Positions 47,723 to 55,171 of a stretch of 55,171 bases of DNA are shown one piece after another. The position numbers and the translations under genes were made by a program. Source of the DNA: an uncultured bacterium (lineage in GTDB: Bacteria > Poribacteria > WGA-4E > WGA-3G); NCBI GenBank assembly GCA_964623585.1, contig CAZURU010000002.1:1-55171 (forward strand). Reading direction: 5' to 3'. The number at the start of each line of letters is the position of its first letter. Position 1 is the first letter of the stretch. The notes beneath the pieces were generated by a model. It made no database searches. It saw only the letters and a program-made list of their open reading frames with translations, and was not told where the DNA came from.

Positions 47723-50700
47723 ATGAAAAAACGAACACTTGTTTGTTTTTTGATTTTTACATTGTGTGTTTTTCACATTTTAATAACAGACACTGCGGTT
47801 GGGCAAGACGACAATACATCTTTAGCCCAGCAAGTGTTTGATAAATATAGTGCCACAATATTAAACCGTGACGATATTAAAGCGGTTTTACCTAGTGTCT
47901 TAGAAGGGTTGAAAGCTCCTAATATTCAAGCCCTTCTGACAGATACAACGATTGATCTTGTCGTTGACAACCCGGATCTATTGCAGACCTTTAATGTTGA
48001 CGTTCCCGCGGAGTTCTTAAATCTTCTAAAAACAGATGATGAACTCAAAGCGATGCTCAAGGATCCGATAGTCAAGAGTTTGCTGCAAGATCCAGCAGCG
48101 ATTGATAAAATCGCGGGTCTGCTTAATGTAGGCGCAACACCTGATCCAGCACCGCCGACGATATCTGTTTCAACCTCAAGTCCGACAACCGCTCAACGTG
48201 GTTCGTTTGATGTCGCTTTTACGACAGCGGATGTTAACGGAGACGCGGTTACTGTAACAGGTTCTATTTCGGTGGAACCAGCTGAAGCGGCTGCATATTA
48301 CAGTATCCCAAGCGGAACGCTCACCGGAAGTGTGAAAGTTACGCAGGTGGCACCTACTGAGGCAATGCCTACCATTCCTGGCGCGACTGTCACGTTAACA
48401 CTGATAGCTAACGACGGAACAGCGGATTCATCCCCTGCAACTTTTGTAATCACATTTGATGCAGCAGTGAAACTGGATCCAGCACCACCGACGATATCTA
48501 TTACAACCTCAAGGCCGACAACCGCTCAACGTGGTTCGTTTAATGTCGCTTTTTCTGCCGCAGATGTTAACGAAGACGCGGTTACCGTAACAGGTTCTAT
48601 TTCGGTGGAACCAGCTGAAGCGGCTGCATATTACGGTATCCCAAGCGGAACGCTTACCAGTCCTGTCCGGATTACGCAGGATGCTCCCACTACGGCAATG
48701 CCCACTATTCCTGGGGCAACTGTCACATTAACATTGGTAGCAAATGATGGAACAGCGGATTCATCCCCTGCAACCTTTGTGTTTGAATTTGCTACAGCAG
48801 AGAAAGCAACAGGCGTAGATCTTATCTCTTCAAACCTAAACGGTAAGTCAAAACTCGGTGGTCTCTCTCTAAACGAAATTTATGCACGAGGGTTTATTGA
48901 GAGTTTAGTCAGGGAAGCTGGACTTCCAATTAATCCAAACGATCCTGTTGATCGTGTTGCTGAGGCAGTTGATCTTGTGTTGAATCAGATCCCAGAAGGG
49001 TTTTTGCCTAAAGCTCAGATTAAATATGCATTGACAGCAAGAGACCCTGTATCTGTTTTTTACAATGAGAAGATAGAGCATCCTCAGTTAGACCCTGAAA
49101 ACTTCGGAAACGCTATTTCACCCGCGCTAACAGAACTGCTTTATACCAATGTGAATTCGAAGAAGAGGTATCTGGCTAACGATAACATGAACGTGTATGT
49201 TCGCGTTCCAAATAAACTTGAGAACGGTAGCGTCCAATTTAGACTCAGCGGTTCTCCAGCAGTGCAAGGTAAACGTATTTCACCAACTGAATTCCAAGCA
49301 GATACAATTCCTTATACCTTCAAACTTGAGGAAACACTTGCCGCAACAAACCTGCCAGCTTGGCCAGCGGTTGATCCTGAAGATTTTCCTAAAATCTTCA
49401 AAAGCGTGGTACTTCGGTATTCACAAGAGGGTTTAGATGGACAATATATCGCACTTGACATGGAACCTCATGATGAAGATAAGGGTGTCGTTTGGAAAGG
49501 AGATGTCGGTGTTATTCCAGGACGCAATGTCTTCTACTATTTTGAAGTTACATTGGTGCAACCTGTAATGCTTAATATCGTCAATCCTGTAGCACTCGGC
49601 GAAGCAGTAGCCAATCCTCACGGAACTCATGACGAAGATGCAACGAAGCAATACCGGATTGAGAGTTGGGCAATGCCTGACCCACGCAACCTTCAGTTCC
49701 AAGATCGGGGTATTATTGATGCACTGTTAGCACCAGATGGCTCACCAGATGTCGCATTAGAAATGGCCAGAATATACCTCCTTGTTCAAGGAGGGAACCA
49801 AATTCCGTTTAGCGAGTTTAATAAACTAACACAGTTGTTAAGACGAAACGCAGACGGTTTGCTAACAGAATTTGAAAGTAATTTTGATCCGAGACTGTCG
49901 TCGGTTTTCACCGTGCCAGATATTGACCATGAAACAGAATCGCTCTGGATCGCTAATTTTGACGCAATTGCTGATGGAAATTACACAGTTGAGGCTGTTG
50001 TGCAAAACGCGGATGGTGATGCTGTAGATTACATCACGGTTGATTTCATCGGCGATTCCTCTGCACCTGAAGCAGATATAATGTTCAACCCTGTTGCTAA
50101 TGCTAATACAGATTCCTCTGGATACTTAAATAAGGATAGTATCTTTGTTAGCACAGATAAGAACAACGGACCAGCTGCACTGTTAGACATCGGTAGTGTA
50201 CTTACAAAAGGTATTCTGGGACCGGATGACGGTTATCTGCTCTATCAAGTCTCAACTCTTGATAAAGATGGAAATCACATGACAACGTGGTTACCTTTAA
50301 CAGTAGAATCATCTATGTTAGCATCGGACCTCTGGGATATCGCAAAAGAGCAATTGCCAGGCAATCCTATTTTAGATAACGTTCCTGAACAGTACCGGGG
50401 AATAGTTGATTCACTTTGGAGTTTACCATTTAACTCAGTTTTGGGACTAATAACACCTGGGTTGATACAAGAATTAGGAAATCCAGAACTTGTCAAACGC
50501 GGTATACCAAAAATAAATGATGCAAGAGCGAACTTTATTGCTGATCTATTCGGTGCTCTGGTTGCTGACATTGATGCAATTCCACTTACATACAATGAAA
50601 ATCGGGTCATGAGAATGGCGTTCCTTAAAGGTGAATACGGTATACGGGCATTGGGGATTGATAACCTGTTAAATATTAGTTCTCATGTCAAGTCGACCCG

Positions 50701-55171: not shown

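Follow-up and report, generated by a model that had tools for sequence, protein, structure and literature searches.

A heavily transcribed giant Ig-like protein with a type IX-type sorting tail as the probable main surface protein of a Candidatus Poribacteria bacterium

The 55,171-nt stretch analysed here (the window) is the entire contig CAZURU010000002.1, below C2, of a metagenome-assembled genome (MAG) of an uncultured Candidatus Poribacteria bacterium (GenBank assembly GCA_964623585.1; 910 contigs, 6.13 Mb, 92% complete, 6.6% contamination). It ends inside a gene for a giant protein that is probably the main surface fibre or coat protein of this bacterium, exported by a route like the type IX secretion system (T9SS) and held by its own outer-membrane barrel. 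Positions 47723-55171 carry the 5’ two-thirds of this single gene, and its 3’ end was located on contig C312 of the same genome. An earlier sequence-only reading of the window had proposed a giant surface protein at this place and had raised the possibility that it is type IX cargo; that interpretation is supported by the results described here.

When open ends were allowed in the open reading frame (ORF) listing, 47723-55171 was translated on the plus strand as 2483 codons with zero stops. Since C2 ends inside the gene, a listing restricted to ORFs with a stop codon does not show this frame. The earlier claim that it stays open to the last base of the window was therefore confirmed, and short ORFs listed at 50275, 52366, 53134 and 54305, previously described as off-frame, proved to be minus-strand frames inside the giant gene. 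Two runs from the same sample, a sponge metagenome (DNA, X1) and a metatranscriptome (RNA, X2), were assessed as Logan contigs and contain 98% of the words sampled from this stretch. Contigs from both cover the giant ORF with no insertions or deletions, and the base differences are a few substitutions, none able to create a stop (for example A>G at 52073, a first codon position). The sole indel cluster, at 52939/52940 (+3 nt in total, in frame), belongs to a related strain from another sample. As far as these data reach, they show neither the stop codons nor the frameshifts that had been named as grounds for abandoning the frame, and the giant open frame is real. It opens, as had been proposed, with a Shine-Dalgarno sequence (GAGGAGG, unchanged across 32 aligned leaders), an ATG and a segment with the Sec signal-peptide layout of charged, then hydrophobic, then small residues (Table 1). 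The encoded part of the protein is as acidic as described before (pI 4.21, 10.1% Asp), and its only two Cys residues both lie within the signal peptide.

A tblastn search of the whole genome with the giant protein returned C312 as the only other contig with these repeats. Its minus strand opens with a 5’-open ORF of 699 residues, which runs from further Big_13 repeats through immunoglobulin (Ig)-like domains of Big_3_3/Y_Y_Y type to a C-terminal domain (...NYPNPFAENTRISFGL...GIGWDGKTSSGESLARGIYY...ILKLALTGAK). This tail scored 167.8 bits against a hidden Markov model (HMM) of the family tails and is ~95% identical to the tails of close relatives. The genes at the end of C2 are hemE, MBL-TPR, hemH, a hemY-like gene and the giant, and reverse-complemented C312 continues with the giant tail, a PorV-like gene, a LysM/coiled-coil gene, an ACCA-like gene and TauE on the opposite strand. 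Placed end to end, they reproduce the gene order of the related loci L003 and L004 (hemE, MBL-TPR, hemH, amine oxidase, giant, a ~346-residue gene, LysM, ACCA-like, and TauE on the opposite strand). The order downstream of the giant was repeated in all ten loci examined, which come from four families of the order, three of them besides the window’s own. DNA depth is 32-34 on both contigs. When C2 and C312 were compared with a complete 3,832-residue orthologue (L019, genome G100), the terminal 400 residues encoded on C2 aligned to its residues 2027-2403 and the initial 300 encoded on C312 to its residues 3150-3447. The protein is thus no shorter than 3,182 residues and would reach ~3,900 if its repeat number matches that of this closest complete relative, in which case ~745 residues (about eight Ig repeats) are unassembled.

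The sorting domain that had been expected beyond the window was found on C312 as a FlgD_ig/Por-type C-terminal domain (CTD) ending 3 residues before the stop. A profile of 16 tails of this type from the same genome, the giant’s included, matched the CTDs of PorU (6za2, E 2.8e-9) and PorZ (5m11, E 1.3e-5) as well as FlgD Ig domains, and 15 of the 16 tails matched both PF18962 and PF13860. The tail of the giant itself matched the CTD region of the PorU model NF033707 (E 8e-17) and gave no match to CHU_C, the type B domain. At the level of sequence its homology to the Por-type sorting domain is clear, with the curated thresholds unreached by this member. The HMM of family tails matched 36 ORFs of the genome, always with a full-length domain match ending 0-16 residues from the C-terminus, and the domain therefore behaves like a sorting tag. 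Most of these ORFs share the motif NYPNPFNPETWIPYQL...AAYWDGKN..GE.VASGIYFY; they lie on C4, C6, C11, C13, C17, C29, C132 and other contigs, with clusters of five on C17, four on C132 and three on C11. The idea that the giant’s tail is nearer to PorU-type than to cargo tails, which would favour retention, was discarded, as the HMM scores disagree (58 bits for a C132 cargo, 47 for the PorU-like protein on C13).

Candidate export genes are also present. The gene at 30.3-36.8 kb, earlier suspected to be SprA-like, does match the SprA model (Table 1) and lies 11 kb upstream of the giant. In the same-sample DNA and RNA contigs, T>A at 31888 (plus strand) turns the minus-strand TAA at 31887-31889 into TTA (Leu) and fuses the 1684-residue ORF with a downstream 517-residue ORF into one frame of ~2,216 codons; a consensus error or a minor variant accounts for the stop in the MAG. 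Three giant PorU-like ORFs are encoded in the genome, of which the one on C13 spans most of the model, and two of them (C13, C29) also bear a Por/FlgD-Ig tail. Together with the sorting tail and the PorV-like gene, they support the suggestion of type IX cargo. In a 2014 study of poribacterial genomes, many Por-type sorting tails were reported while the secretion machinery was not found, and the export route was left open (PMC3909097). A poribacterial SprA is among the leading identifications in a 2026 sponge-proteome preprint.

The gene directly 3’ of the giant encodes a PorV/PorQ-family barrel of 347 residues (NF033709, E 8e-23). The product of the next gene, 286 residues long, combines a signal or anchor sequence with a long coiled coil, a C-terminal hydrophobic segment and a LysM domain that scored above its cut-off (37 bits). 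The ACCA-like gene is next after the LysM gene in 10 of 10 loci, and the high RNA depth reaches its 5’ part before falling to ~40. The predicted signal-peptidase sites of the giant (AVG-QDD, 47801-47806) and of the PorV-like barrel (CFA-QDD) both expose an N-terminal Gln, and the GQ at the giant’s site is conserved within the family. The exposed Gln recalls the ‘Q-rule’, which has been described as specific to Bacteroidetes (PMC5837995).

Transcription was read from X2 as the assembler k-mer depth of Logan contigs (Table 1), while the corresponding DNA depth was ~33 on every poribacterial stretch tested. The RNA depth of the giant is roughly 8-10 times that of EF-Tu, and in the ~90 kb sampled, repeat elements aside, nothing else exceeded ~700, a value seen in an alcohol-dehydrogenase gene region. 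The giant appears to be the most heavily transcribed gene of the organism among these ~90 kb. An order-of-magnitude RNA excess along a gene of 9.5 kb or more is difficult to account for unless a unit of the giant, PorV-like and LysM genes is transcribed very strongly. RNA depth over the leader region of a related strain in a second sample was 567, against a DNA depth of 3.6. An S-layer or surface coat is expected among the most abundant gene products of a cell, and the giant ranks there at the RNA level only. Depth spikes (DNA 250-2,800, RNA 200-6,400) occur at 45118-45751 and 46386-46789 and on C312 at 1-215 and 1506-1720. They are copies of dispersed repeats resembling repetitive extragenic palindromes or miniature inverted-repeat transposable elements (REP/MITE-like) and are connected to one another by many joints; binned depth is inflated by them, and a reading of expression has to leave them out. 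Runs X9-X11, considered as a second expression test on the G100 orthologue, showed flat depth; they are DNA runs and unusable for this purpose.

The distribution of the giant was followed with its core. A search with a 1,539-residue core returned more than 200 proteins of ~1,500-4,200 residues at 34-81% identity. Every source name among these core relatives is Candidatus Poribacteria, and the annotations read ‘hypothetical’ or ‘Ig-like domain-containing’. With each species represented by one genome, a core piece was found in 147 of the phylum’s 176 genomes. In the window’s own family 110 of 111 genomes have it, essentially as a single copy and in open frames of roughly 1,500-5,500 residues where the gene is complete; matches in other families of the order are weaker. 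The tail ...ILKLALTR ends 109 of the 120 members of the protein family listed. Among 1.84 billion representative proteins, an exhaustive HMMER search found only 90 matches to the core of residues 362-1118. Judged from these searches, the core is a narrow lineage-specific invention and not a widespread domain.

The modular make-up of the protein (Table 1) agrees with the earlier description of an Ig/cadherin-like giant, as judged from the Pfam match to Big_13 (E 4e-24; matches to Big_3_3 and Y_Y_Y were weaker) and from chains of beta-sandwiches in the AlphaFold models of residues 362-1900. The Ig-like repeats are 40-45% identical to one another by self-BLAST. In the model of residues 1119-1900, about eight beta-sandwich domains form a string, and the mean predicted local distance difference test (pLDDT) score is 81. 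Sequence searches of the PDB with residues 362-1118 and 1119-1900 gave nothing at E <= 1. Foldseek searches with both models returned generic multi-Ig/macroglobulin-type matches only (TM-score <=0.21; <=0.17 for the core 362-1118) and no enzyme or receptor-specific fold in the modelled residues 362-1900; no function can therefore be derived from structure. The best fold match for 1119-1900 was to the Ca2+-stabilised adhesin repeats of MpIBP (PDB 4p99), and others were alpha-2-macroglobulin/C5, mastigoneme, the HPI and Sap S-layers and SiiE. This match, the acidic composition and a sub-threshold match to Ca_tandemer (34.7 bits, cut-off 50) suggest that the protein is probably stabilised by calcium. 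No SLH or related S-layer anchoring module was matched by Pfam in the parts encoded on the window and on C312. Residues 141-361 vary within the family, and few homologues span them. Paralogues of the N-terminal helical domain occur on C187 (48% identity) and C185 (36%). On C187 (~8554-9507, minus strand), two tandem copies of this domain (giant residues 24-135) are present in a secreted protein ending in dockerin-like DxNxDGxxN repeats, while on C185 (~8611-9003, minus strand) one copy is fused to a multi-pass, cation-exchanger-like membrane domain.

The gene is preceded by a long conserved leader. An RNA contig covers 47209 onward, which places the start of at least some transcripts at this position or farther upstream. 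Leader length is 481-534 nt in 49 of 50 genomes, and identity within the genus is 71-95%. In genus g6 the block 47207-47277, which includes promoter-like site 2, is 82-87% identical and the last ~150 nt 73-78%, with the protein core at just 40-48%; nucleotide conservation of the leader exceeds amino-acid conservation of the protein. Predicted stems are GGATGGGCAA/TTGCCCATCT and a hairpin AGTCTCG...AGACT just 5’ of the Shine-Dalgarno sequence. RNAalifold on 32 leaders gave two plausible stems and one pair with double changes, covariation too sparse for a claim of structure. A stretch CCUACCUCC (~47622-47631) could pair with GGAGG of the Shine-Dalgarno sequence, and an Rfam search of 1.2 kb around the leader returned nothing. 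The leader may act as an mRNA-stabilising or translational control element; S-layer mRNAs are known for long stabilising leaders. An 8-bp two-state tandem array (46901-47099) sits ~20 nt upstream of promoter-like site 1, and a related strain (run X4) has a 2-nt length difference in this array at 47019.

Table 1 Features of the giant gene and its surroundings, with RNA depths of the compared genes. Positions refer to the window unless C312 is named; residues are those of the giant protein.
Feature	Position	Strand	RNA depth	Remark
SprA/Sov-like outer-membrane translocon gene	30291..36941	-	38	TIGR04189 E 9e-46; candidate export pore
Promoter-like site 1, TTGACA-17-CATAAT, TG-extended	47119..47147	+		consensus scan 11/12; also in L003
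Promoter-like site 2, TTGACA-17-TATTAT	47216..47244	+		consensus scan; inside 5’ block conserved across genera
Long conserved leader, 5’ untranslated region >=~470-515 nt	47207..47722	+	2826	RNA contig 47209-47770
Shine-Dalgarno GAGGAGG	47708..47714	+		read from sequence; 8 nt 5’ of ATG at 47723
Giant ORF, residues 1-2483	47723..55171	+	3,000-3,500 (X2)	ATG start, open 3’ end; cut by contig end
Signal peptide, residues 1-27	47723..47803	+		MKKRTLVCFLIFTLCVFHILITDTAVG-QDD; family form MKKRTLVCFLIF..., nearly invariant
N-terminal helical domain, residues 28-135	47804..48127	+		no significant Pfam match
Two tandem 111-residue modules, residues 141-361	48143..48805	+		self-BLAST: 82% identical to each other
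Lineage-specific core, residues 362-1118	48806..51076	+		beta-sandwiches and two helical bundles; AlphaFold mean pLDDT 75
Two ~375-residue repeats (1119-1480, 1496-1870)	51077..53332	+		self-BLAST 30-34% identical
Ig-like repeat array, Big_13, period ~92 residues	53480..55171	+		starts at ~residue 1920; runs off contig
Giant tail	C312		2,850-4,400 (X2)	
PorV-like gene	C312		2,444-2,689 (X2)	
LysM gene	C312		~1,500-2,444 (X2)	
ACCA-like gene, 247 residues	C312 1577-2317	-		carboxyltransferase-fold, PF03255 28.5 bits
Remaining ACCA-like gene and beyond	C312 from ~1,940 on		~40	
EF-Tu			317-436	
EF-G			192	
Ribosomal-protein cluster			145-240	
Complex I operon			250-440	
Heme genes			49	
Genes at window 1-8 kb	1-8 kb		58	

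The giant can be pictured as an acidic rod, probably stabilised by calcium, in which roughly 25-30 beta-sandwich domains are chained together. It would be moved across the inner membrane by the Sec system via its signal peptide; its C-terminal T9SS-type sorting domain would then be recognised and the outer membrane crossed by a type IX-like route through the SprA-like pore. The protein would stay on the cell surface, its C-terminal domain most likely remaining bound to the downstream PorV/PorQ-family barrel, and the co-expressed LysM/coiled-coil protein may tie the assembly to peptidoglycan. Retention of the CTD in a PorV/PorQ-like barrel is suggested by the tight linkage of the cargo and barrel genes across the order and by their similar expression. 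A more specific model, which is possible and is offered tentatively, takes the trio (the ~3,900-residue protein, the PorV/PorQ-like barrel and the LysM/coiled-coil tether) as a new, S-layer-equivalent kind of coat in which the CTD is retained in a peptidoglycan-strapped barrel, the SprA-type pore works with no recognisable PorK/L/M/N motor and the 500-nt leader, more strongly conserved than the coding sequence, makes the very long mRNA stable and abundant.

Several points weigh against a barrel-held, T9SS-exported coat protein. Most export components scored below the curated cut-offs of their models: 81.5 bits against 90 for the PorV-like barrel (NF033709), 24-26 against 27 for the giant’s tail with FlgD_ig, 270-280 against 420 for the PorU-like proteins, and 155.8 against the 200-bit equivalog cut-off of TIGR04189, with partial model coverage, for the 1684-residue SprA-like ORF (31887-36941). 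PF18962 was not matched by the giant’s tail in a single-sequence search. Searches of the MAG for GldL/PorL and GldM/PorM gave no match, with the controls silent and the search unvalidated, and the GldK matches were FGE-sulfatase-type paralogues only. Localisation at the surface is a prediction. The joining of C2 to C312 is supported by synteny, orthology and depth and not by a joining sequence, as no exact suffix-prefix overlap (k = 21-127) was found between the C2 end and any contig end; between the two contigs an estimated 0-750 repeat residues are unassembled. The RNA depths are assembler k-mer depths and not read counts, a rough measure taken from one sample pair, and the second sample shows the leader region only, at >=95% identity.

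The main rival, itself unlikely, shares the export route and differs in the fate of the protein: once a PorU-like protease had removed the CTD, the protein would be shed into the sponge mesohyl and act there as a matrix, biofilm or host-interaction factor. Most type A cargo in Bacteroidota has its CTD cleaved, and three PorU-like (C25-type) proteins are encoded in this genome. Host interaction has moreover been discussed as a role of the ‘eukaryote-like’ Ig, FN3 and cadherin-like proteins that sponge symbionts encode (PMC3909097). However, a PorV/PorQ-type barrel gene that immediately follows the cargo gene in 10 of 10 loci, at a similar RNA depth, is more in keeping with a stoichiometric partner than with a transient shuttle, and the LysM/coiled-coil partner suggests an assembly fixed to the envelope.

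It is very improbable that the giant is a gliding-motility adhesin of the SprB type driven by a Gld/T9SS motor: a giant repetitive T9SS-type cargo does adjoin a dedicated barrel gene, as sprB stands beside sprF, but the barrel is of the PorV/PorQ and not the PorP/SprF family, the tail lacks a CHU_C match, and the GldL/GldM searches with their silent controls gave no match. An RTX-type repeat adhesin secreted by a type I secretion system (T1SS), like MpIBP, LapA or SiiE, would account for the acidic tandem Ig-like repeats, the best fold match to 4p99 (MpIBP region II) and the weak Ca_tandemer match. This scarcely credible reading is already contradicted by the terminal domains, as the N-terminus is a Sec signal peptide and the C-terminus a Por/FlgD-Ig domain instead of RTX repeats with a T1SS signal; nor do T1SS genes flank the gene in the relatives L003 and L004. 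Next to no weight is given to an assembly artefact (a repeat chimera) or a decaying pseudogene. The MAG is fragmented and partly contaminated, the contig breaks inside a repeat array and several database orthologues are truncated, but the frame runs unbroken for 7.4 kb and matches its orthologues collinearly through the whole core (35-81% identity), the independent same-sample DNA and RNA contigs carry no indels in it, and single-copy occurrence holds in nearly every genome of the family.

Poribacteria are uncultured and among the most abundant and widespread sponge symbionts. The locus unites pieces of an answer to the export question, namely a SprA-like pore gene that is intact in reads, a heavily transcribed cargo, a PorV-like barrel and a predicted peptidoglycan-binding partner. 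If the giant forms a coat, it would be the first candidate molecule for the contact of sponge cells and phages with the poribacterial cell, and a natural handle for antibodies, cell sorting and cryo-electron tomography. The trio would then be the main physical interface between a dominant symbiont and the sponge matrix, and type IX-like surface display with no recognisable motor would have a well-supported example outside Bacteroidota.

The kind of system, a T9SS-type cargo with a cognate barrel, is known; this variant was not found described in the searchable literature. Closest in arrangement are PorU-PorV and PorZ-PorQ of the Porphyromonas gingivalis T9SS, in which, as proposed here, a Por-type CTD protein is paired with a PorV/PorQ-family barrel; in both pairs the CTD is retained and acts as an anchor. 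Unlike PorU and PorZ, the barrel’s proposed partner in Poribacteria is structural, ~3,900 residues long and devoid of a protease or PorZ-like propeller. The locus differs further in its third, LysM/coiled-coil gene and in belonging to a non-Bacteroidota phylum in which PorK/L/M/N are not detectable.

TfsA and TfsB of Tannerella forsythia are abundant S-layer proteins with Ig-like domains and a T9SS CTD, and are exported by the T9SS. The giant resembles them in its Ig-like domains, T9SS-type CTD and S-layer-like RNA depth, but no sequence similarity to them was found; its length is about three times theirs, and a barrel of its own is encoded next to it. In Flavobacterium johnsoniae, sprB lies next to sprF; SprB is a giant repetitive adhesin, and its cognate outer-membrane protein is co-transcribed and needed for secretion or anchorage; cargo with a type B CTD is held by PorP-like proteins. 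There the CTD is of type B and the barrel of the PorP/SprF family, whereas here the CTD is FlgD-Ig/type A-like and the barrel of the PorV/PorQ family, and the gliding machinery was not found (GldL/GldM controls silent). MpIBP region II (4p99) and SiiE, like the giant, contain an acidic tandem beta-sandwich array forming an extended rod, but both are T1SS substrates with RTX-type C-termini, in contrast to the Sec signal peptide and T9SS-type tail of the giant. Compared with all of these, the poribacterial variant combines a lineage-specific giant, single-copy in almost all the family’s genomes searched, what is apparently the top transcription among the stretches sampled and a LysM partner in a non-Bacteroidota phylum with no recognisable motor.

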